NCBI GenBank assembly: GCA_965237675.1
Contig: OZ250150.1
Location: 1,536,001-1,600,000 of the forward strand
DNA length: 64,000 nucleotides
From: Candidatus Latescibacterota bacterium
Lineage (GTDB): Bacteria; Latescibacterota; UBA2968; GCA-2709665
Reading direction: 5' to 3'
Of the stretch, positions 9,840 to 45,328 are shown piece after piece. Every line of letters starts with the position of its first letter. Position 1 is the stretch's first letter. The notes beneath the pieces were generated by a model that saw only the letters and a program-made list of their open reading frames with translations, searched no databases and was not told where the DNA came from. A program made the translations under genes and the position numbers.

Positions 9840-12800
9840 CGAGATCCGCCGCGTAGCGCCGCTGTTGCATTTGTAGGGGCAACCCTTGTGGTTGCCCAGG
9901 TGATGGCGTTGATATCGCCCATTGATATAGCCAGGCCATATCGCTAACCGGCTTTAGCTGACCGCTGCAGGCTGATCGCTGACATCAGAGCTAAGGTGAA
10001 TTATTCGCAAAAAAGGTAGATTCGTTACTCCAAGTCATTGTATTATGGTTACGCAAATAACCTTATAGCAATGAATTTGGAAGAAACTACCGTGGGGGCT
10101 CAAGATAGTCATCACAGGATCCTTTTCTCAAGTCTATTCGGTGAAAAGTGAAGGGATTGATCATCATGGAGGACCTCTCCCCCCGGCCCCCTCTCCTGCA
10201 AGGAAAGGGGGAGTTGAACCAGGCGTTGTGCCAACACGGTTTTATATGAGCTCTGATTGAGCGGACCAACCACAATATTTCGCCGGGATTTTTTCAACAA
10301 TGGAAACGTCTTCAGCCAATCCAACGGTTCATTAACCGATCACGGTTCCCCCTTCCTCTCAGGAAGGGGGTTAGGGGGTAGGTCTCGCAGGTCTCGCCAG
10401 AGCTGTCGTTCTTCTTCTAACATGTCAGCCCGCAAACCTCACGCCGACTTCACTTTCTCGATTCACTCGGAAGCTGTTTCTGCTTCCTGAAACTGCAATC
10501 CGTGACAATTCATGAATTAATCAGATCTAAATTATTATTTTTCACGCCCTTTTTCTTGTACGCCCAAGAAAAAGGACCAAAAAGAACGGCGCCGTTCGGC
10601 ACGGGGCCGGTTTTTCCGCGAAACGTTTCAGGGGTAATAAAGGGAATTGGCTGCCCTGAGAGCCACTCAGGTGTACCAGTGCGATGGTGCTGGACGGATT
10701 AGCGCGGAAAAGCCCCGTCACCACCGCTGTTGCATTTTGCGACACCTGGAAGCGGGGGCGTAGCGCCGTCGTTTTATTTGTAGGGGCAACCCTTGTGGTT
10801 GCCCAGGTGATGGCGTTGATATCGCCCATTGATATAGCTAGGCCATATCGCTAACCGGCTTTAGCTGACCGCTGCAGGCTGATCGCTGACATCAGAGCTA
10901 AGGTGAATTATTCGCAAGAAAGGCAGTTTCGTTACTCCAAGTCATTGTATTATGGTTACGCAAATAACCTTATAGCAATGAATTTGGAAGAAACTACCGT
11001 GGGGGCTCAAGATAGTCATCACAGGATCCTTTTCTCAAGTCTTTAGCGAGGACCTCTCCCCCCGGCCCCCTCTCCTGCGAGGAGAGGGGGAGTTAAACCA
11101 GGCGTTGTGCCAACACGGTTTTATATGAGCTCTGATTGAGCGGACCAACCACAATATTTCGCCGGGATTTTTTCAACAATGGAAACGTCTTCAGCCAATC
11201 CAACGGTTCATTAACCGATCACGGTTCCCCCTTCCTCTCAGGAAGGGGGTTAGGGGGTAGGTCTCGCAGGTCTCGCCAGAGCTGTCGTTCTTCTTGTAAC
11301 ATGTCAGCCCGCAAACCTCACGCCGACTTCACTTTCTCGATTCACTCGGAAGCTGTTTCTGCTTCCTGATACCGCTATCCGTGACAATTCATGAATGAAT
11401 CAGATCTAAATTCTTGATTCTTATTTTTCCTCGCCCTTTTTCTTGTACGCCCAAGAAAAAGGGCCAAAAAGAACGGCGCCGCTCAAACGCCGCGGGGCTG
11501 CTTTTCCGCGAAACCCCTCAGTGGCGCAGACCAGCTTCGATGCCCTACGAGCGTTTGCGGAGTTCCCAGGCGACAGGCGTTGGACGGAATAGCGCGGAAA
11601 AACCCCCCACGCCACCGTTGTTGCATTTTGCGACACCTGGAAGCGCGGGTTCCCGCGCCGCCGTTGCAGTTTGTAGGGGCAACCCTTGTGGTTGCCCAGG
11701 TGATGGCGTTGATATCGCCCATTGATATCGCTAGGCCATATCGCTAACCGGCTTTAGCTGACCGCTGCAGGCGGATCGCTGACATCAGAGCTAAGCCTCT
11801 TTAATTCACACAAAAGGAAGTCTCCTTGCTCAAGTCATTGTATTCTGGCTTACTTAATTAACCTTATAACAATGAACCTGGAGCAACCTGGCGTGGAGGC
11901 TCAAGATAATCATCACAGAATCCTTTTCGCGAGTCTTTAGTGAGGACCTCTCCCCCCGGCCCCCTCTCCTGCGAGGAGAGGGGGAGTTGAACCAGGCGTT
12001 GTGCCAACACGGTTTTATATGAGCTCTGATTGAGCGGACCAACCACAATATTTCGCCTGGATTTTTTCAACAATGGAAACGTCTTCAGCCAATCCAACGG
12101 TTCATTAACCGATCGCAGTTCCCCCTTCCTCTCAGGAAGGGGGTTAGGGGGTAGGTCTCGCAGGTCTCGCCAGAGCTGTCGTTCTTCTTCTAACATGTCA
12201 GCCCGCAAACCTCACGCCGACTTCACTTTCTCGATTCACCCGGAAGCTGTTTCTGCTTCCTGAAACTGCAATCCGTGACAATTCATGAATTAATCAGATT
12301 TAAATGCTTGATTTTTCTTCGCCCTTTTTCTTGTACGCCCAAGAAAAAGGGCCAAAAAGAACGGCGCCGCTCAAACGCCGCGGGGCTGCTTTTCCGCGAA
12401 ACCCCTCAGTGGCGCAGACCAGCTTCGATGCCCTACGAGACCTTGCGGAATTTCCAGGCAATAGTGCTGGACGGAATAGCGCGGAAAAGCCCCGTCACCA
12501 CCACCGGGCGGGTTAGAGAGAAACGCGAGGGACCGGAAAAAAGAACGCCTCCCTCGCGTTCGGAAAGCAAAACGGGACTGGAACGCAAAGCCCGTCCGGA
12601 GGGCAACCAGAGCAGAGCGCGCTATTCCGTCCATCTCGGAGATCGGGTACCCGCCCTCGCTGGCAGGGCAACGGGTCGTGTGCATCCTGTGAGGAAATTC
12701 GCGCTGTGTATAAGTACGGCCCCGCGCCCAGCGGCGACTTTTAAAAGCGGTAAGAAGCAAGAGGCAAGAAGGTAGAAGGGTTAATAACTTTGTCATATGA

Positions 12801-14067: not shown

Positions 14068-14138
14068 TGCCGGGTCGTCTAAAGGTAAGACAACGGCCTT
14101 TGGAGCCGTCTATCGGGGTTCGAATCCCTGCCCGGCAG
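14068..14138 (+). tRNA. tRNA-Gln(TTG), CCA not encoded
   Basis: Acceptor stem TGCCGGG/CCCGGCA, anticodon arm ACGGC-CTTTGGA-GCCGT, T-loop GTTCGAATC; usual position after ispE. Confidence 0.95.
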
Positions 14139-15523: not shown

Positions 15524-16930
15524 GAGCAACCCTCACGGCCGCTCCCCGGGAGCGCGGGCGTCTCGCCCGCATGGCGCCGACGTCGCATTTGTAGGGGCAA
15601 CCCTTGTGGTTGCCCGCATCACGACGCTGACATCCGTGATAATGATATCGCCAGGCCATATTGAAAGCCGGTTTTAGCTCACTGCTGATGGCTGACATCA
15701 GAGCCAAATTCTTAAATATTATTTTTCCTCGCCCTTTTTCTTGTACGCCCAAGAATCGGCTGGAAGCAAGAGGGAAGACGTGGGAAGGGTTGGTAACATT
15801 GTCGGATGACACCCCCGCACAATGGCTTGTCGAGCCGTTGAGGAAGCGTGTGTGAAGGTGGGGCAGACATTCCTGTCTGCCCATCTCGTGTTTACGCAAC
15901 ACTTCGTTCGACTCCCCCTCTCCTCGCAGGAGAGGGGGCCGGGGGGAGAGGTCCTTCTGCCGGAATGCAGACAGAAGAAAGGGTTGCGCCGACGTCAGCA
16001 TTTGTAGGGGCAACCCTTGTGGTTACCCGCGTCAGGGCGATGTTATCGGTAATGGTCTTCGCCAGGCCATATTGCAACGGACTCTCGCCGAGTTGAAGTT
16101 GACCGCTCATCTTCCGAAAGCCAGTCAGTTCTCGATCGCGAGCCCTGTCCGGAGGACCACCAGAGCAGAGCGCGCGGTTCCGTCCATCTCGGAGATCGGG
16201 TACCCGCCCTCGCAGGTAGGGCAACGGGTCGTGTGCATCCTGTGAGGGTGTTCGCGCTGTGTATATGGCAGGCTCCGCCTGCCTGTGCGTTGCCGCACGC
16301 AGACAGGCGCCTGGCGGCGACTTTTAAAAGCGGTAAGAAGCAAGAAGGTAGAAGGGTTAATAACTTTGTCATATGAAACCCTCTGAACCGGAGTCTCGCT
16401 AACTGGAAAATAGAAGTGGATCGCGAAAGAGGGCGCGTAACCGGTGGGTGGCGGCGTGGCCTTCTCACCTCTCCCGTCTTTCGTCTCACGGTTTCAAGGA
16501 ACCCTCCGGAGGCAGGGAATTTGAGGAGAGGTTGTGATTTTGGAGTAAAATTCTTATTTATTATTTTCTTCGCCCTTTTTCTTGTACGCCCAAGAAAAAG
16601 GGCCAAAAAGAACGGCGCCGCTCAAACGCCGCGGGGCTGCTTTTCCGCAAATCGCCTCAACAGTGTCGACAGGCTTTGGTGCCCTTTGTCCCTTCCATCC
16701 GTTCCTGAACCATGGTGGTGGACGGATTAGCGCGGAAAAGCCCCGTCACCACCACCGGGCGGGCGTGAGGCAGATCGGGAAGGACCGCCACGCGGATTGG
16801 CTTCGAACCGCAGGTGTCGCATTTGTAGGGGCAACCCTTGTGGTTACCCGCGTCAGGGCGATGTTATCGGTAATGGTCTTCGCCAGGCCATATTGCAACG
16901 GACTCTCGCCGGGTTTAAGCTGATTCCTGT
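15520..16930. repeat. Intergenic repeat mosaic between pth and hppA
   Basis: REP palindromes, B-type core 16166-16261, A-type core 16641-16739; modules shared with the other mosaics. Confidence 0.88.
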
Positions 16931-17010: not shown

Positions 17011-19038
17011 ATGGTCTGGACGCCAATAGTCTGGACGCCAATCTTTGGGATTGCCGGGTTGCTGGTCGCCGGGCTGATTTACTTGAGAATTGCCCGTAAA
17101 CCGGCCGGAACGGATCGGATGCGAGAGATTTCGGATGCCATCCACGAAGGCGCCATGGCGTTCTTGAAACGCGAATACGTGGTTCTGGCGGTTTTCATCG
17201 TGGCGGTTTTCATCTTGCTTTCGATCGGGATCAGGCCGTTCAGCACGGCGTTCGCGTTCCTGGCCGGCGCAATCTGTTCCATCGGCGCCGGTTTTTTCGG
17301 TATGAAGGCGGCCACCAAGGCCAACGTGCGCACCGCGTATGCCGCCAACCGCGAGGGCCAGGCAGAGGCCCTGGGCGTGGCTTTCTCCGGCGGAACGGTG
17401 ATGGGCCTCTCGGTGGCCAGCCTCGGGCTGTTGGGCGTGGGCGTGCTGTTCCTCCTGTTCGGTAATGCGGACCAGGCCGTGGTCATCAACGGATTCGCCA
17501 TGGGCGCCAGTTCCATCGCCCTGTTCGCGCGTGTGGGCGGCGGTATCTATACCAAAACGGCCGACGTGGGGGCCGACCTGGTCGGCAAGGTGGAGGCCGG
17601 CATTCCCGAGGACGACCCGCGCAACCCCGCGGCGCTCGCCGATTTCGTGGGCGACAACGTGGGCGACGTGGCCGGGATGGGGGCCGATATCTTCGAGTCC
17701 TACGTGGGATCGATCGTGGCAACCATCGCCATCGCGGCCACGGCCGGGCCGGCCCTGATGGACACGTTGGCCGGCAGTTCCGTGTATGCCGACGCGGCCG
17801 TGAAACTGACGGCTATGCAACTGCCGCTTATCGTGGCCACGATCGGCCTGGTGGCATCGCTGATCGGCATGTTGTCCATGCCGGTCCTGCAGCGTTTCAA
17901 TCCCGCGTCCGCCCTTCGCTACGCTTCGTTCGTGGCCGCCATCGTCATGTTCGCCGGCAGCTATTTCGCGGTGGACGGCTTGGGGCTCTCCGAAGGCGTG
18001 TTCTGGGCGATTCTGCTGGGCGGCCTCACCGGCATTCTGATTGGCCTGCTCACCGAATATTACACCGGCGGCCCACCGGTCAGAAGGGTGGCCGAAGCCT
18101 CTGAAACCGGGCCCGCCACCAATATCATCTCGGGCCTGGCCATCGGCATGCAGAGCACGTTTCTGCCCGTACTGGCCATCTGCGCCGCCATCGGGTTCGC
18201 CCATCATTTCGCCGGGCTTTACGGCATCGGCATCGCGGCCGTGGGGATGCTGGCAACCGTGGGCATCACCATGGCGGTGGACGCGTACGGGCCCATCGCG
18301 GACAACGCGGGCGGCATTTCCGAAATGGCGGAACTCGGACCCGAAACCCGGAAGATCACGGACGGCCTGGACGCGCTGGGCAACACCACGGCGGCCATCG
18401 GCAAGGGCTTCGCCATCGGATCGGCGGCTCTGACGGCCCTGGCCCTCTTCTCGGCCTACGCCTCGACCGTGAAACTGGAGGTGATCAACCTCACCTCGCC
18501 GATGGTGGTGATCGGCCTTTTCATCGGTGGTTCCATCCCGTTCCTCGTCGCCGCCCAGACCATGACCTCGGTGGGGCGGGCGGCCTTCCGGATGGTGGAA
18601 GAGGTCCGGCGGCAGTTCCGGGAGATTCCCGGGTTGATGGAAGGCACCGGCAAACCCGATACCCGGCGCTGCGTGGATATCAGTACGGTCGCGGCGCTGC
18701 GGGAAATGGTGCCGCCCGGGGTCGTTGCCTTGCTCACGCCCGTGCTGGTCGGATTCATCCTCGGCAAGGAAGCGCTCGGCGGCATGCTGGCCGGCGCCCT
18801 GTTGAGCGGCATGCTGATGGCGCTGATGATGGCCAACAGCGGCGGCGTGCTGGATAACGGAAAGAAATACATCGAGGACGGCCACTTCGGCGGCAAGGGG
18901 TCCGAAGCCCACATGGCCTCGGTGGTCGGCGACACCGTGGGGGATCCGCTGAAGGACACCTCCGGCCCCTCGCTCAACATATTGATCAAATTGATGTCCG
19001 TCGTCTCGCTCGTGCTTGCACCGCTATTGATCGACTGA
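17011..19038 (+). CDS. hppA: Membrane pyrophosphatase, K+-dependent, probably Na+-translocating
   Basis: [29 protein letters not shown]-like motif, [16 protein letters not shown]; AGGAGG SD before ATG 17011. Confidence 0.93.
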
Positions 19039-19049
19039 TATAATAACAC

Positions 19050-20200
19050 GGCCGGTTCGCAGGATTCCCTGGCGCCGCGTCGTCGTTGCATTTTGCAGGA
19101 GCAACCCTTGTGGTTGCCCGCATCAAGGCGCTGACATCCGTGATTATGATATCGCCAGACCATATTGCAAGCCGGTTTTAGCTGACCGCTGTCAGCTCGA
19201 CGTTGAAAAGCCAGTCGGTTCTCGATCGCGAGCCCTGTCCGGAGGACCACCAGAGCAGAGCGCGCGGTTCCGTCCAGGGCCGAGTACCGATGTTCTTCCG
19301 TGGTTGGCAGGGCAGAGGATCATGTGCATCTCGTGAGGGGATTCGCGCTGTGCATAAGTACGGCCCCGCGCCCAGCGGCGACTTTTGGTTCCTTTTGGTC
19401 GGTTCAAAAGGAACTCGCCGAAGGCAGGTAATTTGGGGAGAGGTTGTGATTTTGGAGTAAAATTCTTATTTATTATTTTTTACGCCCTTTTTCTTTCTCG
19501 CCCAAGAAAAAGGGCCAAAAAGAACGGCGCTGCTCAGACGCCGCAGGGCTGGTTTTTCCGCGAAACGCCTCAGTGGAGAAATCGTGAGACATTGCCCTGA
19601 GACCGCCTGAGCATACACGGGACAATAGTGTTGGACGGAATAGCGCGGAAAAACCCCCCACGCCACCACCGGGCGGGTTAGTGAAACGCGAAGGACCGGA
19701 AAAAAGAACATCTCCCTCGCGTTCCGAAAGCAAAATGGGACTGGACGGCAAAGCCCGTCTGGAGGATAACCAAAGCAGAGCGCGCGGTTCCGTCTCGCAC
19801 GGAGTACCCAATTTCTTCCGTGTTTGGCAGGGCACCGGCTTTGTTGCGTCCGCCGTCGAGATTCGCGCTGTGTATAAGTACGGCCCCGCGCCCAGCGGCG
19901 ACTTTTAAAAGCGGTAAGAAGCAAGAGGCAAGAAGGTAGAAGGGTTAATAACTTTGTCATATGAAACCCTCTGAACCGGAGTCTCGCTAACTGGAAAATA
20001 GAAGTGGATCGCGAAAGAGGGCGCGTAACCGGTGGGTGGCGGCGTGGCCTTCTCACCTCTCCCGTCTTTCGTCTCACGGTTTTAAGGAACCCTCCGGAGG
20101 CAGGGAATTTGGGGAGAGGTTGTGGTTTTGAATTTGTCTTTTGCTTATAGCTGACCGCTGTACACTGACTGCTGACCGCTGAAAGCTGTTTCCCATTCAC
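19050..20200. repeat. Intergenic repeat mosaic between hppA and rpsF
   Basis: B cores at 19256-19352 and 19776-19872, A core at 19554-19652; same layout as 12320-12950. Confidence 0.88.
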
Positions 20201-20258
20201 CCCGCTCGAGGCCGCCCGGTCGGGCCGCCTTCGGGCCACACGTCCAAGGGGAGGTTCC

Positions 20259-20621
20259 ATGGCAAAACGTTACGAACTCACGATCATCGTCAATACCCAG
20301 GCGCCGGAAGGCGGTGTGGACCGCATCGTCGCGGGTTTCGAACGCCTGCTTTCGGAGAACGGCGGCAGCACGGTCAACGTCAACCGTCTGGGCACGCGCA
20401 AGCTGGCGTACGAAATCGGCAAACAGCAGCGCGGCGACTACACGTTCATCCGCTTCGAGACCTCGCCGGACGTCCTTCCCGAGGTGGACAGGATGTTCAA
20501 ACTGGACGAATCCGTGCTGCGGCACATGGTCGTCCTGGACGAGACCCCCGTGGAGGAAGAACCGGAAGCGGCCGAAGAAGACGAAAACACGGATTCAGAC
20601 GCGAAAAAGGAGGGCGCATGA
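20259..20621 (+). CDS. rpsF: 30S ribosomal protein bS6
   Basis: YELTII, LG.RKLAYEI, SVLRHM. Confidence 0.95.
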
Positions 20622-20706
20622 ACCGGTCCAAACAACGCGAAAAAGGAGGGCGCACGAACGGGCCCAATATACGCGAAAAAGGTGGGCGCATGAACCGGCC
20701 CAGTAT
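20599..20706 (+). repeat. 3 x 36-bp tandem repeat spanning the rpsF stop and the rpsR SD/start
   Basis: ACGCGAAAAAGG(A/T)GGGCGCA(T/C)GAAC... at 20599, 20635 and 20671. Confidence 0.9.
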
Positions 20707-20914
20707 AAAGGTTTGCAGATTTTGTGAAGACAAGGCGTTGACGATCGATTACAAGGACGTGCGGATGCTCCAGCGGTTCGTGACGGAACGGGGAAAGATT
20801 ATCCCCCGGCGCGTGTCGGGTACCTGCGCCAGGCACCAGCGCATCCTCACCCGGAATCTCAAGCGCGCCCGCCAGATCGCGCTGTTGCCCTTTACAACAG
20901 ACAACATGAATTAG
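20618..20914 (+). CDS. rpsR: 30S ribosomal protein bS18 (Zn-binding type); alternative start at 20690
   Basis: [41 protein letters not shown]. Confidence 0.95.
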
Positions 20915-21820
20915 AGTGGAAAGAGGTAAGAAGTAAGAGGCAAGAGGTGTTGGTAACTTTGTCACATGAGACGTCCGCAACCGGACTCTCGCAATATTCA
21001 AAAAGAAGCGGATTACGAAAGGGGGCGCGAGACTGGTGGGTTGGGGTGTGGTCCTCTCACTTCTCTCGTCTTTCCTCTTACGGCTTTTTTTGGAACTGCG
21101 TTTCGGGCAGACACTGGCATTTCTACTCTCTTCATCCTTTTTTCTTTTTCCTCGCCCTTTTTCTTGTACGCCCAAGAAAAAGGGCCAAAAAGAACGGCGC
21201 CGCTCAAACGCCGCGGGGCTGCTTTTCCGCGAAACGCGTCGGTGGCGGTGAACGGAGGAGGTGGCCTAAGAGCCTCTAAAGAGTTCCTGTACGCAGGCGT
21301 GGGACGGATTGGCGCGGAAAAGCCCCATCTCCGCCACCGTGCGCGCGAGACGTTGACCGGTAAGGCCCTCCGAGCGGGTTTGCGATTGTACCGCTTTTCG
21401 CTGTCTGCAGCTTGCGGTTTTTTCCTTTGTGTTTTTGTGTGAGGCGGTGTTTTCGTGGGTACAGGCGGGCGACCGGCCGGTCGCCCCTACCAAAACCAGG
21501 TATCCGCGAATTGACATCGCCGGTCCGTATCGCTAACCCTCCCCCTCTCCCCGTGGGAGAGGGGGCCGGGGGGTGAGGGACTTGGGGCCGATGTGGATTG
21601 GCATCGCCAGGCCGTATGGCAATCTGCCTTTTGCTTTTCGTTCTTAGCTGACCGCTGATAGCTTTCTGCTGCTTTCGTCGATGCTGCTGCCCGCTACAAA
21701 TATATCGGGGTTAACTCCCCCTTTCCTTTAGGAGAGGGGGCCGGGGGGAGAGGTCCCGCTTTTTTTTGCCTTTTGTTGTAAGCTGACTGCTGACCGCTGA
21801 TAGCTGTTCGCTATATAATT
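20915..21820. repeat. Repeat mosaic between rpsR and rplI
   Basis: A core at 21223-21321; 21302-21590 is identical to 22668-22956. Confidence 0.88.
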
Positions 21821-21867
21821 AATGTAAAACGCCAGATGGCCATCGCGCCGAACGAAAGGGAACCACC

Positions 21868-22311
21868 ATGAAGGTTATATTGACGGAAGAACTGAACAAC
21901 CTTGGCCGGGCCGGATCCGTTGTGGTCGTCAAGGACGGCTACGCCCGGAACTACCTCATCCCCCGGAAACTTGCCCTGGCGGCCAGCAAGGGAAACATGA
22001 ATGTCTACGAGGAACTCAAGCGCCAGAAAGAGGCCGGCAACACCCGCGCCCAGCGCGAGGCCGCGGCCCTCTCGAGGAAACTCGAAAAGGCATCCTGCAC
22101 CATTCCCGTGGCCGTGGGCAAGGAAGACCAGATCTTCGGCTCCGTGACGGCGCAGCACATTTCCGATCAACTCGTGGAGCAGGGCTTCGAGATCGACAGG
22201 CGGTGGATCGAACTCGAGGAACCCATCCGAGCGCTCGGGGTCTACGACGTGTCCGTCCGGCTCCATGCCGAAGTACGCGCAACCGTGAAGGTGTGGGTGG
22301 TGAAGGAATAA
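21868..22311 (+). CDS. rplI: 50S ribosomal protein bL9
   Basis: MKVIL..LG..G.VV.VKDGYARNYLIP, FGSVT. Confidence 0.97.
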   Translation: MKVILTEELNNLGRAGSVVVVKDGYARNYLIPRKLALAASKGNMNVYEELKRQKEAGNTRAQREAAALSRKLEKASCTIPVAVGKEDQIFGSVTAQHISDQLVEQGFEIDRRWIELEEPIRALGVYDVSVRLHAEVRATVKVWVVKE

Positions 22312-22319
22312 CCCGGCTT

Positions 22320-23150
22320 TTGACGTCTCAGGTTTGGTTTTCGCTTCTCGCTGTATGGTTTTCGATTTTTGCTTCAAGCTGACTGCTGACCGCTGATAGC
22401 TGTTTCCAGGGAATAGCACGTCATCGGCATACAAAAGCAGTGGGGAAAGACGGATGGTGGGTCTTGTTCAAGGCCCATGAGACGTTTTTCCTCCTTTCTT
22501 TTTGTTTTTTATTCATTTACGCCCTTTTTCTTTCTCGCCAAAGAAAAAGGGCCAAAAAGAACGGCGCCGCTCAGACGCCGCGGGGCTGCTTTTCCGCGAA
22601 CCACCTCGGTGTCGGAACAGGCGTCTGTGCCCTACGTACCCATATGACCACACAGCGCTCCGGTGCTGGACGGATTGGCGCGGAAAAGCCCCATCTCCGC
22701 CACCGTGCGCGCGAGACGTTGACCGGTAAGGCCCTCCGAGCGGGTTTGCGATTGTACCGCTTTTCGCTGTCTGCAGCTTGCGGTTTTTTCCTTTGTGTTT
22801 TTGTGTGAGGCGGTGTTTTCGTGGGTACAGGCGGGCGACCGGCCGGTCGCCCCTACCAAAACCAGGTATCCGCGAATTGACATCGCCGGTCCGTATCGCT
22901 AACCCTCCCCCTCTCCCCGTGGGAGAGGGGGCCGGGGGGTGAGGGACTTGGGGCCGGGGGGAGAGGTCCCGCGCGGTCGTTGCATTTGTAGGGGCGACCG
23001 CTGGGTCGCCCGGTTCGTGGCGCGCATATCGCTGATTGACATCGCCATGCCATATCGCTAACCCTCCCCCTTTCCTTTAGGAGAGGGGGCCGGGGGGAGA
23101 GGTCGTGAATTTGGTTTTCGCTTTTGCTTCAAGCTGATTGCTGATTTCTT
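22320..23150. repeat. Repeat mosaic downstream of rplI
   Basis: A core at 22590-22687, REP palindromes, heptamers. Confidence 0.85.
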
Positions 23151-23174
23151 TCACATATGTGAAAGAAAATTTCG

Positions 23175-23812
23175 ATCGTTCCGAGTCATTCACCGCCCGA
23201 TGCCTCACGCCTTGAGTCTCTTTATAGGCTGAGGCATTATCTGTATATGCTGTAACGTTTTTGTCCGTATGTCGCGCCACAAAGCCCCGCCAATAGCTTC
23301 TGCAACCTCAGCGTCAACCCTATTGGTCTGCCCCGTCCCACCCTCCCACAACTAGGGTGAATTATTCGCAAAGAGTTGTGGTGTTCTTGAATAAGAGGTT
23401 GTTTTTCAATAAATTAAGAGTAGGGAATCACGACAACTCTTGAAGTTGTGGGATCGGGTTGGCAAAAGTGATGTCGTACAGTCGTATGATGGACGGATTC
23501 ATCGCTATAACCCGGAATAGGGAGCATGCTTCCTGCTTTTCGTTTTTATCCCTTCCATCCTGTCCATCCATGTAAATTCCGGTTTCTGAATTTTTAAGGC
23601 TGGGGTCTTGCCTGCAGTGCCGCGTCCAGCGTTCGGCTTCTTGCTGGCATGTTTTTTGCGTTCCTTGCCGCCAATGGTGGTTTCCTCTACCGGACCCTCA
23701 AAGAGCCCGTTGGTTGCTGAGCCTGTCGAAGCATCGGCGCATGCCTCGCGGATGCGGAGCGCCATGTGCCACTCGGTCTTCTGAGTTACGCCAATGTCCC
23801 GGTGCAATTTCA
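23175..23812 (-). pseudogene. Degenerate IS1595-family transposase fragments
   Basis: KLHRDIGVTQKTEWHM..RIREA, LFEGPVE.T.IGGKERKKH, then TNRVDAEV and YTDNASAY fragments; frameshifted and interrupted by repeat DNA at ~23345-23595. Confidence 0.8.
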
Positions 23813-25131: not shown

Positions 25132-26049
25132 GTGAATATGTCAACTGAAATATCGATATTTAAGCTGCACGAGATGTTCCCGGATGAAGCCTCGGCCGAA
25201 GCCTGGTTTGAGAAGTTACTTTGGCCGGAAGGTGTTCGTTGCTCAGGCTGTGGAAGTGAGGATATCCAGGCACGACCGACGAAAAAGCCTTTGCCTTATC
25301 GCTGCCGCAGTTGTCGGACAGATTTTTCGGTAAGGACTGGAACCTTACTGCACAGGTCACATCTACCCTTGCGGAAATGGGTTTTCGCCATTTACTTAAT
25401 AAGTCGCCCAAAGGGAATTCCTTCTACTCAGTTGGCACGTGATTTAGGCATAACGCAGAAAACAGCTTGGTTCTTGGGCCATCGAATACGACAGGCTTGT
25501 TTACAATTTGGACGGAAGTTTTTGGGAACGGTTGAAGTAGATGAAACTTTTGTAGGTGGGAAAAAATCAAATAAACATCGTATTAAAGGGCAAAAATTTA
25601 AGCGAGGAACTGCGGATAAAGTTCCCATAATTGGTGTTTTTGAAAGAGGGACGAAAAAGGTTCAAACAAAGGTCTTAGGTGATATGTACGGAGGAACATT
25701 ACGTAAACCGATATACGATTGGGTATATAAAGGAATGTCCGTTTATAGTGATGAAAAATTAGAATATAAGAAAATATCTGAAGACTATTATCACGCATTT
25801 GTCCGACACGGCGCAGGACAGTATGTTAAGGGTAAGGCGCATACCAACGGGTTAGAAAATTTCTGGAGTCTGTTCAAACGTGGGTATATGGGAACTTATC
25901 ATGTAATGAGCCCTAAACATCTTTGGAGATATGCGCGAGAGTTCACCGCCCGACATAACGCAAAACCCTTGGGCGTTTACGGATTTATGAAGAAACTAGT
26001 CCAGGGGATGAGAGGTCAGCGACTACAATACCAGGAGCTTATAGCATGA
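25132..26049 (+). CDS. IS1595 family DDE transposase
   Basis: Zn ribbon CSGC..CRSC, LARDLGITQKTAW, VEVDET, YSDE, HTNGLENFWS..KR...G.YH..S.KHL.RY..EF..RHN. Confidence 0.95.
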   Translation: MNMSTEISIFKLHEMFPDEASAEAWFEKLLWPEGVRCSGCGSEDIQARPTKKPLPYRCRSCRTDFSVRTGTLLHRSHLPLRKWVFAIYLISRPKGIPSTQLARDLGITQKTAWFLGHRIRQACLQFGRKFLGTVEVDETFVGGKKSNKHRIKGQKFKRGTADKVPIIGVFERGTKKVQTKVLGDMYGGTLRKPIYDWVYKGMSVYSDEKLEYKKISEDYYHAFVRHGAGQYVKGKAHTNGLENFWSLFKRGYMGTYHVMSPKHLWRYAREFTARHNAKPLGVYGFMKKLVQGMRGQRLQYQELIA

Positions 26050-31849: not shown

Positions 31850-34000
31850 CCACCTCTCCCCAAATTCCCTGCCTCCGGGCGGGCGACAGGTCGTACGCGA
31901 GGGACCGCGGGGTGTGCATGGATGCTCTGGCCGATGTACGCACGACATCTCGCGCCGTTGTTGAAATTGTAGGGGCAACCCTTGTGGTTGCCCACGTTGT
32001 GATTTTGGAGTAAAATTCTTATTTATTAATTTTCACGCCCTTTTTCTTGTACGCCCAAGAATCGGCTGGAAGCAAGAGGGAAGACGTGGGAAGGGTTGGT
32101 AACATTGTCGGATGACACCCCCGCACAATGGCTTGTCGAGCCGTTGAGGAATCGTGTGTGAAGGTGGGGCAGACATTCCTGTCTGCCCTTCTCATTGTCC
32201 TTCTGCCGGAATGCAGACAGAAGAAAGGGTTGCGCCGCCGTCGCATTTGTAGGGGCAACCCTTGTGGTTGCCCACGTTGTGAATTTGGAGTAAAATTCTT
32301 ATTTATTATTTTTCACGCCCTTTTTCTTGTACGCCCAAGAAAAAGGGCCAAAAAGAACGGCGCCGCTCAAACGCCGCGGGGCTGCTTTTCCGCGAAACCC
32401 CTCAACAGTGTCGACAGGCTTTGGTGCCCTTCGTCCCTTCCATCCGTTCCTGAACCATGGCGTTGGACGGATTAGCGCGGAAAAACCCCGTCACCACCAC
32501 CGGGCGGCCGTGAGGCAGATCGGGAAGGACCGCCACGCGGTATGGCTTCGAACCGCAGGTGTCGTATTTTGCTACATCTGGAAGGGCGGGCGTAGCGCCG
32601 TCGTTGGAATTGTAGGGGCAACCCTTGTGGTTGCCCACGAAATGGCGCAGACATCGCTGGTCGACATCGCCAGGCCGCATCGCTAACCGATGTTAGCCAA
32701 TCGCTATACGCCCACAGCCGATCGCGGGACGTTGGTCGACGTACGGTATCTGTAGGGGCGACCGGCGGGTCGCCCTTACAAAAACGAAATATCTGTGAAT
32801 CTCTATCGCCGGTTCGTATCGCTAACCGCTGAATTTTAATTAAATTCTTATTTATTATTTTTCACGCCCTTTTTCTTGTACGCCCCAAGAAAAAGGGCCA
32901 AAAAGAACGGCGCCGCTCAAACGCCGCGGGGCTGCTTTTCCGCAAATCGCCTCAATAGTGTCGACAGGCTTTGGTGCCCTTTGTCCCTTCCATCCGTTCC
33001 TGAACCATGGTGGTGGACGGATTAGCGCGGAAAAGCCCCGTCACCCCAACCGGGCGGGCGTGAGGCAGATCGGGAAGGACCGCCACGCGGTATGGCTTCG
33101 AACCGCAGGTGTCGCATTTTGCGACATCTGGAAGCGCGGGCGTAGCGCCGTCGTTGCATTTGTAGGGGCGACCCTTGTGGTTGCCCCTGTCACGGTGCTG
33201 ACATCGTAACGGGATTTCTAAGGTTTAACGCTGACCGCTGTCAGCTCGTCATTGGAAAGCCAGTCGGTTCTCGATCGCGAGCCCTGTCCGGAGGACCACC
33301 AGAGCAGAGCGCGCTATTCCGTTCATCTCGGAGATCGGGTACCCGCCCTCGCTGGTAGGGCAACGGGTCGTGTGCATCCTGTGAGGGTGTTCGCGCTGTG
33401 CATAAGTACGGCCCCGCGCCCAGCGGCGACTTTTAAAAGCGGTAAGAAGCAAGAGGCAAGAAGGGAAAAGGGTTAGTAACTTTGTCATATGAAACCCTCT
33501 GAACCGGAGTCTCGCTAACTGGAAAATAGAAGTGGATCGCGAAAGAGGGCGCGTAACCGGTGGGCGGCGGAGTGGCCTTCTCACCTCTACCGTCTTACGT
33601 CTCACGGTTTCAAGGAACCCTCCGGAGGCAAGGAATTTGGGGAGAGGTTGTGATTTTGGAGTTAAATTCTTATTTATTAATTTTCACGCCCTTTTTCTTG
33701 TACGCCCAAGAAAAAGGGCCAAAAAGAACGGCGCCGCTCAAACGCCGCGGGGCTGCTTTTCCGCGAAACCCCTCAACAGTGTCGACAGGCTTTGGTGCCC
33801 TTCGTCCCTTCCATCCGTTCCTGAACCATGGCGTTGGACGGATTAGCGCGGAAAAGCCCCGTCACCACCACCGGGCGGCCGAGGGATTAAACTTGAGGGG
33901 CCACAAGGCGGGCGGTTCGCGAACCGCCCCTACGAAAACCTGACATCCGCGATATCGATGTCGCCAGGCCGGTATCGCTAACCCTCCCCCTCTCCTCGCA
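31850..34000. repeat. Repeat mosaic
   Basis: A cores at 32386-32484, 32936-33034 and 33757-33855; B core at 33305-33400; several REP palindromes. Confidence 0.88.
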
Positions 34001-34781: not shown

Positions 34782-35126
34782 CGCGCCGCTTAGTTCAGCT
34801 CCCCCTCTCCTCGCAGGAGAGGGGGCTGGGGGGAGAGGTCTCACAGTGTTAACGCGCCGCTTAGTTCAGCTCCCCCTCTCCTCGCAGGAGAGGGGGCTGG
34901 GGGGAGAGGTCTCACAGTGTTAACGCGCCGCTTAGTTCAACTCCCCCTCTCCTCGCAGGAGAGGGGGCTGGGGGGAGAGGTCTCATAGTGTTAACGCGCC
35001 GCTTAGTTCAACTCCCCCTCTCCTCGCAGGAGAGGGGGCTGGGGGGAGAGGTCTCACAGTGTTAACGCAACGCTTAGTTCAGCTCCCCCTCTCCTCGCAG
35101 GAGAGGGGGCTGGGGGGAAAGATCTC
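34772..35126 (+). repeat. 5 x 71-bp tandem palindromic repeat downstream of DUF559
   Basis: Units start at 34772, 34843, 34914, 34985 and 35056; each has CCCCCTCTCCTCGCAGGAGAGGGGG. Confidence 0.95.
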
Positions 35127-43530: not shown

Positions 43531-44029
43531 ACCGGTTCCTCGCGGCCACCTGTCGACCGCCCGGTTGTGGAGTAGGGGGTGTCTATCGCCCTCTAACGTG
43601 TTTAACCGTACCTGCGCCCGGTGGCGAAGTTTGGGGGTTTGCGGCCCCACCGGTTCTCCCGTCGACCGCCCGGTTGTGGAGTGGGGGGTTTTTCCGTGCT
43701 GATCCGTCCAGCAGTGTCGTCTGGTTGATACTCGGGGGGTCTCAGGGCAATGTCTCACGATTTCTCTACGAAGGAGATTCGCGGAAAAACCGGCCCCGTG
43801 CCGAACGGCGCCGTTCTTTTTGGTCCTTTTTCTTGGGCGTACAAGAAAAAGGACGGAGAGAGGAAAAAAGCACGAAGTATAAGGAAGCGTGTGTGAAGGT
43901 GGGGCAGACATTCCTGTCTGCCCATCTCGTGTTTACGCAACACTTCGTTCGACTCCCCCTCTCCTCGCAGGAGAGGGGGCCGGGGGGAGCGGTCCTTCTG
44001 CCGGAATGCAGACAGAAGAAAGGCTTGCG

Positions 44030-44250
44030 CCGCCTTTATAGAGCCAATACTCGGGGTCGCGCAGTCCGGTTTTTGGGGGGTTTTCCGGGATGTAGCGGAC
44101 GAAGCGCCAAACCTGCTTTTCGCTGCGTACCATGTGATCATAGGATTCGTCGAGCCGGAAAGTCCCGGTGACGCCCGTGAGTTGGTTGATTTCGCGGGCA
44201 GATACGTCTTTAATGCCCTGCAGAATCCGCGAAAGGTCATGCCCTCCCAG
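44030..44250 (-). pseudogene. RAYT C-terminal relic
   Basis: LSRILQGIK..SAREIN..GTFRLDESYDHMVRSE....RYIPENP; no N-terminal HUH half. Confidence 0.78.
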
Positions 44251-45328
44251 CGGTTCCTCGCGGCCACCTGTCGACCGCCCGGTAGGGGAGTAGGGGGTGT
44301 CTATCGCCATCTAACGTGTTTAACCGTACCTGCGCCCGGTGGCGAAGTTTGGGGGTTTGCGGCGTCACCGGTTCTCCCGTCGACCGCCCGGTTGTGGAGT
44401 AGGGGGTTTTTCCGTGCTGATCCGTCCAGCAGTGTCGTCTGGTTGATACTCGGGGGGTCTCAGGGCAATGTCTCACGATTTCTCTGCTGAGGAGATTCGC
44501 GGAAAAACCGGCCCCGTTCCGAACGGCGCCGTTCTTTTTGGTCCTTTTTCTTGGGCGTACAAGAAAAAGGACGGAGAGAAAAGGGACGTCCGGGGGTAGG
44601 GAAGATTCCACCACCCGCAAATTCCGTTCCGGTGGCGGCGTGGGGGTTTCTATCGCCCTCTAACGGGTTTAACCGTACCGGCGCCCGGTGGCGAAGTTTG
44701 GGGGTTTGCGGCTTCACCGGTTCTCCCGTCGACCGCCCGGTTGTGGAGCGGTGGGTTTTTCCGTGCTGATCCGTCCAGCAGTGTCGTCTGGTTGATACTC
44801 GGGGGGTCTCAGGGCAATGTCTCACGATTTCTCTACTAATGAGATTCGCGGAAAAACCGGCTCCGCGCCGAGCGGCGCCGTTCTTTTTGGTCCTTTTTCT
44901 TGGGCGTACAAGAAAAAGGACGGAGAGAGGAAAAAAGCACGACGTGTGTAGAAATACCAGTGCCTGCCCGGAACGCAGTTCCAGCAACGGTAGTCCGGCA
45001 ATACAGGACGTAACAAGTTGCATTCCGTAAAACTCAAAAAGGACCACGCAACGCGGACTCTCGCATGGATGCGCGTTTCCGCTCCCACGCGTGCCGAACG
45101 GCGCCGTTCTTTTTGGTCCTTTTTCTTGGGCGTACAAGAAAAAGGACGGAGAGAAAAGGGAAGTCCGGGGGTAGGGAAGATTCCACCAACCCCAAATTCT
45201 GTATCCAACCGACCGGAAAAATCACTTCCCCTACGGAACGGAACCCCATCCGATTCGTTAAAAGATTAATCGGCCACGGTTCCGGAATAAGTGGACAGAT
45301 ACGAGACAGGGCAAGGAGGAGACAAGAG

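Follow-up and report, generated by a model that had tools for sequence, protein, structure and literature searches.

A dispersed family of structured intergenic repeats on either side of rplI in a Latescibacterota genome

What kind of element brackets rplI, the gene for ribosomal protein L9, in a Candidatus Latescibacterota bacterium? We analysed a stretch of 64,000 nucleotides (the window; positions 1,536,001 to 1,600,000 of contig OZ250150.1, assembly GCA_965237675.1) from a genome of 5.6 Mb (G000), in which two segments, one before and one after rplI, have matching outer parts and differing middles. A preliminary description had treated them as two cassettes with exchangeable inserts. We propose, with a probability of about 70%, that they are neighbouring copies of a dispersed, strictly intergenic, structured repeat family of ~280 nt that belongs to one Latescibacterota order and whose copies exchange segments with one another.

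The rplI-flanking copies and their family

A repeat search and pairwise alignment agree on 289/289 identity between 21302-21590 and 22668-22956, at a spacing of 1366, which exceeds chance by far and confirms what had been seen by eye. To the left of each block, 21155-21233 and 22522-22600 (the latter being genome positions 1558522-1558600) are 93.67% identical over 79 nt by blastn, close to the near-identity first noted for some 75 bp. The five mismatches between these left modules are scattered, and a third, weaker copy of the module lies at 19468-19578 (repeat search, family D2). Between left module and block stand the centres, 68 nt in copy 1 (21234-21301) and 67 nt in copy 2 (22601-22667). 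They carry TG(G/C)CCT at an equal position and are 65% identical in a global alignment, against a genome-wide median of 63% for pairs of copies. The preliminary description was right that these middles differ strongly and share TG(G/C)CCT, but "unrelated" is too strong a word for sequences at 65% identity that keep the length and anchors of a family. Its argument that point mutation is insufficient stands, as a fully identical flank adjoins a centre of 65% identity. The blocks enclose rplI (21868-22311), which follows rpsF (20259-20621) and rpsR (20618-20914), and so place the gene between direct repeats, as had been said; perfect repeats of 289 bp expose rplI to deletion by recombination.

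The 79-nt left module gave 77 blastn matches in G000, 55 of them with the right-hand junction motif, and a strict pattern (arm, 67-73 nt, junction plus arm) found 53 copies, against none for the same pattern reversed as a control. Thirteen complete copies fall inside the window, and 54 of 54 complete copies lie outside predicted genes as delimited by our own rough gene calls. Every aligned copy of this family, which we call family A, has its parts in the same order: an AT-rich hairpin, the short GC hairpin P0 (of which there are a longer and a shorter version), an arm, the variable centre, a junction, the complementary arm, and a C-rich tail that carries further small hairpins. The arm has the consensus GGGGC(T)G(C/G)TTTT(T)CC(G/A)(C/T)G, the complementary arm C(G/A)(C/T)GGAAAA(G/A)CCCC and the junction GGACGGA. 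Alignment with a copy in the closest relative (G008) sets the unit at ~280 nt, from the AT-rich hairpin to about 21420. Beyond the unit, the 289-bp block consists of other high-copy modules, namely a T-rich stretch, a palindrome resembling repetitive extragenic palindromic (REP) sequences at 21466-21493, and a GC hairpin at 21540-21580. The AT-rich hairpin is replaced by hairpins of different sequence in two distant genomes (L093 and L099).

Orientation relative to neighbouring genes is mixed (19, 14, 13 and 8 copies over four classes), and the copies show no replication-strand bias on the two arms (28:17 and 6:2). On contig C1, cumulative GC skew is lowest near 0.18 Mb and highest near 3.95 Mb, which makes the replichores very unequal (~3.8 and ~1.8 Mb), and 31 of the 53 copies lie between 1.0 and 2.0 Mb of this contig.

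G000 also contains a sister family (family B), of which 17 copies reach at least 120 nt; its representatives in the window stand at 19200-19430 and 19727-19906, in the opposite orientation to family A. Its layout comprises an AT hairpin, an A run, a GC hairpin, a clamp stem, a centre of 65-66 nt with CTGCCCTGCC, and a GGACGGAA junction. The clamp helix differs in sequence from that of family A: GCACAGCGCG pairs with CGCGCTCTGC at 9 of 10 positions in a reading of the consensus.

At the gathering score, Rfam matched only tRNA in the whole window and nothing in the repeat; in E-value mode, 19000-23400 gave 14 matches (best E 0.099), all far under the gathering score. ARAGORN reported only tRNA-Gln at 14068-14138. 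Titles and abstracts of the published literature on Latescibacter intergenic repeats yielded no description of such repeats. With neither an Rfam match nor a paper found, family A is an undescribed dispersed structured repeat of ~280 nt. A coding reading was rejected on inspection: open reading frames (ORFs) that cross the units stop within the centre, and one-base differences in arm length break any common frame. Family-wide comparison indicates that the supposed insert is the family's own variable centre, homologous from copy to copy and locked in length, and not cargo; the description of the two segments as cassettes is not upheld.

Clamp stem, terminator-like hairpin and variable centre

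In 159 distinct copies (51 from G000 and 108 from other genomes), the top covarying column pairs after average product correction are those of P0 and of P1, the stem of 11-17 bp formed by the two arms. Examples are a pair that is TA in 81 copies, CG in 50 and AT in 21, one that is CG in 110 and TA in 41, and one that is GC in 109 and CG in 46. Within the 51 G000 copies the named structure pairs 96% of cells, against 44-59% in slid controls, and 31 cells are changed on both sides, a number equalled in 0 of 500 shuffles. Over the eleven inner pairs of P1, 32 departing cells read A.C on the strand of rplI and hence G.U on the other; they are not all independent events, and 2 cells are of the reverse type. 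G000 alone gives 18 against 2 in the same direction.

On the minus strand, P0 followed by TCTTTTT was scored as terminator-like in both rplI-flanking copies, the GC hairpin standing directly before the T run. The A-run columns, which are a T run on the opposite strand, are conserved across genomes, and the hairpin covaries across genera. P0 with its T run has the form of an intrinsic (Rho-independent) terminator, and termination is predicted there. Because wobble bias and terminator-like hairpin are two independent pointers to the same strand, we put it at about even odds that the units are transcribed opposite to rplI and end at their own terminator. They may then function at the level of RNA.

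The centre is 68 nt long in 37 G000 copies, 69 in 11 and 67 in 3 (n = 51), and all 109 copies listed from other public genomes have centres of 65-69 nt. Certain anchor motifs are fixed in it: TG(C/G)CCTG stands midway, CCTCAGTGG close to one end and G(G/T)TGCTG at the opposite one. Pairs of copies have a median identity of 63% in the centre, against 82% in the left module (50 copies, 1225 pairs), and centre subfamilies recur at several loci. No conserved helix within the centre emerged from RNAalifold, which gave only P0 and P1 on both strands, or from mutual information over the 159 copies; nor did 80 cores show any excess of folding (mean z -0.01 and -0.23), single folds being inconsistent in shape. 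A pseudoknot between centre and tail was considered and rejected: it reaches -34.5 kcal/mol in copy 1 and follows no family rule, the comparison of cognate with non-cognate combinations gives p = 0.53 for the rplI strand and p = 0.025 for the opposite strand. No guide-like targets were found when the 51 centres were compared with the genome by blastn. Of the matches, 229 fell within known copies and 34 elsewhere; almost every one of the latter is a further copy without the left module, and the rest are matches of 17-20 nt with E of 0.003-0.05. That a centre which evolves fast and does not fold should keep its length is the most intriguing loose end of this family.

These properties invite the view that each unit is a small-RNA gene, yielding a minus-strand RNA of ~200-300 nt with its own terminator, in which P1 would present the 68-nt loop to targets or to a protein; the genome would then encode about fifty related RNAs. 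The agreement of wobble bias and terminator-like hairpin on one strand favours it, as do the conservation of hairpin and T run with compensatory changes across genera, a centre that is unstructured yet length-locked with fixed motifs, and the layout retained in family B. We nevertheless consider it unlikely: there is no promoter at a fixed distance, sequence past the tail is at random-level identity (R2, median 59%), genomes of one genus have anywhere between 3 and 53 copies, close relatives differ by gain and loss of slots, orientation is independent of neighbouring genes, the centres lack extended genome matches except to further copies, and no Rfam family matches. Multicopy small-RNA families such as OmrA/OmrB combine conserved 5' and 3' parts and a terminator with a variable middle, but they have 2-10 copies at fixed loci with known promoters, whereas family A copies are more numerous and are rapidly gained and lost. 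It is improbable that the units form a library of ~50 interchangeable expressed RNAs (guides, decoys or protein-docking loops) with a swappable 68-nt loop, diversified by block exchange. To our knowledge, diversification of small RNAs by block exchange between copies is undescribed in bacteria.

Block exchange between copies and turnover of slots

The copies are mosaics. With the right flank defined as the 60-200 nt beyond the centre, and 1225 pairs drawn from 50 copies, right flanks are at least 80% identical in 5 pairs, 3 of which have centres only 61-68% identical: the rplI-flanking pair, the pair at genome positions 1546547/1547434 and the pair at 1548322/1555485. Centres are at least 85% identical in 26 pairs, and in 21 of these the right flanks fall below 70%. 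Exchange of blocks is the general rule among copies and no peculiarity of rplI. Where the preliminary description spoke of exchange or acquisition, exchange of segments is real and recurrent among copies, and no sign of acquisition from outside was seen.

The centres of the rplI pair have a sharp border on the right only. Of the two breakpoints first suggested, GGACGG (at 21302) is such a border and GCGAA is not, because the left module differs at scattered positions. The identical tract starts at the family-wide homology of junction and arm and ends inside a GGGGCCG motif of another high-copy module. Such a pattern is what would remain after homology-bounded gene conversion, or after a short duplication, between repeats. 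Scattered breakpoints had been expected of generic recombination; both ends lie at edges of family-wide homology, but this is also where ordinary homology-driven conversion predicts them. We read the 289-bp identity as a probable recent gene conversion or short duplication with its ends in family-wide homology patches.

Read opposite to rplI, a unit runs from a G-rich tail with small hairpins through P1 and the centre to the GC hairpin with its T run and on to the AT-rich hairpin. P1 clamps a fast-evolving centre of 65-69 nt that retains its length and a central motif of the CGCAGGGCA type. In the mechanism that we propose, segments would be swapped between copies through homology-driven, non-reciprocal recombination, either gene conversion or short duplication; near-invariant arms would serve as anchor points while centres and flanks re-assort as blocks. 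The 289-bp identity would be the latest exchange, its left end at the start of P1 arm and junction homology and its right end in another high-copy module. We infer that exchange proceeds by gene conversion rather than transposition, and the main effect may be that of selfish or neutral structured spacers that also insulate or terminate intergenic transcription.

Could the identity be an artefact of assembly or polishing? It is perfect and lies in a repeat-rich region, and among the contigs listed there is no independent cover of centre 1 joined to the block. However, the main contig is 5.6 Mb long, and a repeat of 289 bp should be easily spanned. In run X1, possibly the source sample itself, a 386-nt contig matches 22578-22963 without a single difference and joins centre 2 to the block; its mean depth of 86 lies between one-copy depth (~50) and the depth expected of two copies, which is a weak point. 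The rpsR-rplI slot of G008 is likewise occupied by an element. Logan contigs from runs X1, X2, X3 and X7 are broken at the repeats, and among those listed none spans the stretch or covers centre 1 free of error, a breakage that we counted as evidence neither way. An artefact is, in our view, scarcely credible.

A site-specific, integron-like system is a further candidate, in which a recombinase would swap the 68-nt insert, or the gene between units, at GCGAA/GGACGG. It would fit a variable piece bounded in all copies by the same conserved, mutually complementary arms, and the re-assortment of centres and flanks. Integron attC sites have cores of the form RYYYAAC ... GTTRRRY and act as one folded strand; family A has some likeness to them in its variable middle between conserved, complementary ends and in the signs of function on one strand. 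Against this, the arms GGGGCTGCTTTTCCGCG and CGCGGAAAAGCCCC have no RYYYAAC/GTTRRRY cores at either border, no integrase family occurs among the 33 window ORFs scanned against Pfam (smaller ORFs being outside the scan), and only one border of the identical tract is sharp. The would-be cassettes are syntenic housekeeping genes in conserved order (the pyrophosphatase gene, rpsF-rpsR and rplI, the last with its own promoter-like site). We hold such a system to be very improbable.

The strict pattern occurs in 23 of 168 Latescibacterota genomes (18 of 21 in family f1, 4 of 31 in family f2 and 0 of 115 in twelve other families), all positives coming from two families of one order, and copy number within a genus ranges from 3 to 53. 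By blastn, the unit is present in 22 of 41 near relatives, G000 included. A scan of public metagenome-assembled genomes (MAGs), with one genome per species, added at least 109 loci, in MAGs labelled Latescibacterota and in a few labelled Gemmatimonadota or "uncultured bacterium"; because at least one copy under the latter labels (L092) has the same sequence as a copy from genus g1 (G011), we take these as submitters' labels.

The universal order rpsF-rpsR-rplI is kept in 23 of 23 genomes where rplI was found; rplI is a syntenic housekeeping gene and not an acquired cassette. The gap between rpsR and rplI, measured between the ends of tblastn matches, is about 11-133 nt in nine f2 genomes, 47 nt in G015 and 193-1105 nt in the thirteen g1 genomes with rplI found. 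The gap is short in f2 and G015 and long in g1, and was therefore filled within the genus.

Comparison of G000 with G008, which are 90% identical at the DNA level in rplI and 93% in the pyrophosphatase gene, reveals turnover of individual slots. The slots between pyrophosphatase gene and rpsF and between rpsR and rplI are filled in both genomes, with centres 60% and 57% identical and outer flanks at random level. The preliminary description had suggested comparing strains for polymorphism of the middle at one locus; between these two species, the same slots have different centre types. The closest relative of copy 1 lies in the neighbouring G008 slot (86% over 199 nt; centre 75%). The slot after rplI is empty in G008, which has 26 nt where G000 has about 370 nt, a replacement without clean duplication; the empty form is also a joint in an X3 contig. 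A stretch with three copies (10.5-12.5 kb) forms a gap of 3.1 kb in G000 and of about 0.36 kb in G008.

Several points weigh against our proposal or parts of it. The strictly intergenic placement rests on crude gene calls of our own. The wobble cells are partly inherited within subfamilies, so that 32 against 2 overstates the independent events, and a strand-biased mutation process could imitate the bias. A promoter for the strand opposite to rplI was not found. Whole-unit single-sequence folds of copies 1 and 2 are no stabler than shuffles (z 0.35 and -1.83), and the minimum-energy folds of both copies do not use P1. For a centre with neither excess folding nor covarying pairs, the locked length is not explained by this model. 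Signals on the direction and nature of the 289-bp event are mixed: in G008 the element part of the block goes with the centre type of copy 1, whereas the GC hairpin module with which the block ends was, as judged from G008, ancestrally next to the site after rplI.

Comparison with known repeats and further features of the window

Bacterial interspersed mosaic elements (BIMEs) of E. coli are mosaics of REP and linker sequences between convergent or co-directional genes, with a proposed role in termination or mRNA stability. The intergenic regions studied here are likewise built from a small vocabulary of modules in varying order, but the modules differ, and the family A unit is larger (about 280 nt), has a clamped variable centre and is not known to bind a protein. 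Bacterial miniature inverted-repeat transposable elements (MITEs; Correia, ERIC) are non-coding, folded and present in dozens of copies, and may carry terminators or promoters and split operons. Family A is also non-coding, folded and present in dozens of copies; in contrast to MITEs, its inverted arms are internal and enclose the variable part, and sequence outside the arms is conserved. Nor was a clean target-site duplication seen at the one filled/empty site compared (after rplI, G000 against G008), or a parent insertion sequence found, though the repeat ends were not compared with the IS1595-type transposase gene at 25132-26049.

The closest match in print is the description of REPINs, REP doublets that form hairpins and have two inverted conserved regions. 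In the parts of that account drawn on here, REPINs are extragenic, high in copy number and mobilised by REP-associated tyrosine transposases (RAYTs); those of group I hold a less conserved spacer of 71 bp, kept in length, between 16-mers, with compensatory hairpin changes and vertical descent (PLoS Genet 2011, PMC3116915). REP palindromes are GTAG- or CGTC-tagged, according to the portion used of a second source (PMC3733652). On these accounts family A resembles REPINs in being extragenic and high-copy, in its inverted conserved arms and length-kept spacer, in its compensatory hairpin changes and in vertical persistence in a lineage. It is not a classical REPIN: the arms are inverted to each other but are not palindromes and have no GTAG, the spacer is unfolded, conservation extends outside the arms (terminator-like hairpin, AT hairpin, tail), and there is no link to a flanking Y1_Tnp gene, while a separate GTAG-tagged REP family is present in the genome. 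Members of the latter (GTAGGGGCGACC..GGTCGCCC) stand at 21466-21493, 22832-22859 and 22985-23012; the last two form a REPIN-like inverted pair 125 nt apart, and many such palindromes adjoin family A tails.

A rival reading makes the units non-autonomous transposons that a Y1/HUH transposase would move in the form of single-stranded DNA hairpins, in the manner of REPINs or of palindrome-associated transposable elements (PATEs), with mosaics arising during or after transposition. The units match that part of the REPIN description (PMC3116915) in their inverted conserved arms, in a spacer that is less conserved but fixed in length, and in their compensatory changes, and G.T wobbles are tolerated in DNA hairpins too. 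Contig C1 has three Y1_Tnp genes (PF01797; IS200/RAYT-like) at 1532779-1533420, 1677052-1677759 and 1781310-1782152, all outside the window; one lies 2.7 kb before it, and 19 of the 53 copies are within 75 kb of that gene. We find this explanation quite unlikely, however, given arms that are neither palindromic REPs nor GTAG-tagged, the lack of any family A copy within 2-3 kb of a Y1 gene (nhmmer), the lack of replication-strand bias already noted, and a difference after rplI between G000 and G008 that shows no clean duplication. The Y1 genes also have high-copy end fragments of their own, unrelated to family A. The first two Y1_Tnp genes share 89% identity over about 750 bp. Fragments that correspond to their 5' and 3' ends occur 20-60 times across the genome, and some of these directly adjoin family A units (e.g. 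after the copies at 43638-44583).

Under our preferred reading, of structured repeats that exchange segments, a single uncultured lineage has come to fill the space between its genes from a vocabulary of folded modules and has split an ancestrally tight rpsF-rpsR-rplI operon, the gap between rpsR and rplI having grown from tens of bases to about 1 kb. The family and its sister add a well-delimited, undescribed type of repeat with a terminator-like end, a covarying clamp stem and a centre of fixed length and drifting sequence. For annotation, the units are better masked or named than called as ORFs or cassettes; for evolution, they offer a clean case of block-wise concerted evolution between repeats. 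If they prove to be transcribed, they are a candidate for a large small-RNA family. The features of the window are collected in Table 1.

Table 1. Positions of the rplI-flanking copies, other family A and B copies and associated features in the window.
Feature	Position	Strand	Remarks
AT-rich hairpin, copy 1 (pyrimidine arm/purine arm)	21145..21194	.	Inverted repeat I10, arms 21145-21166 and 21173-21194
Terminator-like GC hairpin (P0) and T run, copy 1	21184..21214	-	Stem 21214-21194, 8 pairs, tail TCTTTTTGGC
P1 arm beside terminator, copy 1	21215..21231	-	Pairs with 21313-21326; compensatory changes, wobble bias
Variable centre, copy 1, 68 nt, TGGCCT kept	21234..21301	-	Nearest: G008 copy in another slot, 75%
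P1 opposite arm, copy 1	21313..21326	-	Pairs with 21215..21231
C-rich tail and more hairpins, copy 1, end of ~280-nt unit	21327..21420	-	G008 homology to about 21420
289-nt block	21302..21590	.	Identical to 22668-22956
GTAG-tagged REP-like palindrome in identical block, separate repeat family	21466..21493	.	D13, I4, I8; many genome copies
GC hairpin module CCCCCTCTCCCC..GGGGCCGGGGGG, end of identical block, separate family	21540..21580	.	D5; many genome copies
Promoter-like site before rplI	21790..21819	+	CTGACC-18-TATAAT, 10/12, consensus match only
rplI (ribosomal protein L9)	21868..22311	+	Pfam Ribosomal_L9_N, Ribosomal_L9_C
AT-rich hairpin, copy 2	22512..22561	.	Inverted repeat I9; left arm also at G008 empty site
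Terminator-like hairpin and T run, copy 2	22551..22581	-	Stem 22581-22561, 8 pairs, tail TCTTTTTGGC
P1 arm, copy 2	22582..22598	-	Alignment of copies
Variable centre, copy 2, 67 nt, TGCCCT kept	22601..22667	-	Best matches elsewhere only 74-75%
289-nt block including P1 arm 22679-22692	22668..22956	.	Identical to 21302-21590; matched by 386-nt X1 contig
Third neighbouring copy, other centre type, between H+-pyrophosphatase gene and rpsF	19473..19700	-	
Three copies spaced 887-888 bp (starts 10535, 11422, 12310), differing centres	10535..12537	-	
Copy upstream of pyrophosphatase gene	16561..16788	-	Matching G008 gap without copy
Three copies: 32306-32533, 32855-33082, 33677-33904	32306..33904	-	
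Three opposite-orientation copies: 43638-43865, 44356-44583, 44705-44932	43638..44932	+	
Sister family B copy, same layout, other P1 helix	19200..19430	+	

Further modules and genes surround these copies. The stretch directly 3' of rpsR (20915-21094) resembles a terminator for rpsF-rpsR: it has a long purine-rich arm at 20918-20950 and, at 21052-21082, a pyrimidine-rich one with GGCTTTTTTTGG after it; comparable purine/pyrimidine modules recur next to other family A copies. A module GCTGAC(C/T)GCTGATAGCTG is present in several copies (21628-21808, 22359-22404 and 23114-23159), and the one at 21763-21808 provides the -35-like part of the promoter-like site of rplI. The GC hairpin module of the GGGGCCGGGGGG type forms five tandem copies, 71 bp apart, at 34799-35117 (genome 1570799-1571117). 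About 2 kb past copy 2 lies a gene for an IS1595/ISXO2-type transposase (25132-26049). At the rpsF/rpsR junction, three tandem repeats of 36 nt (20599-20706; 83% identical) overlap the part that encodes the acidic S6 tail and give S18 a repeated basic peptide at its N-terminus.

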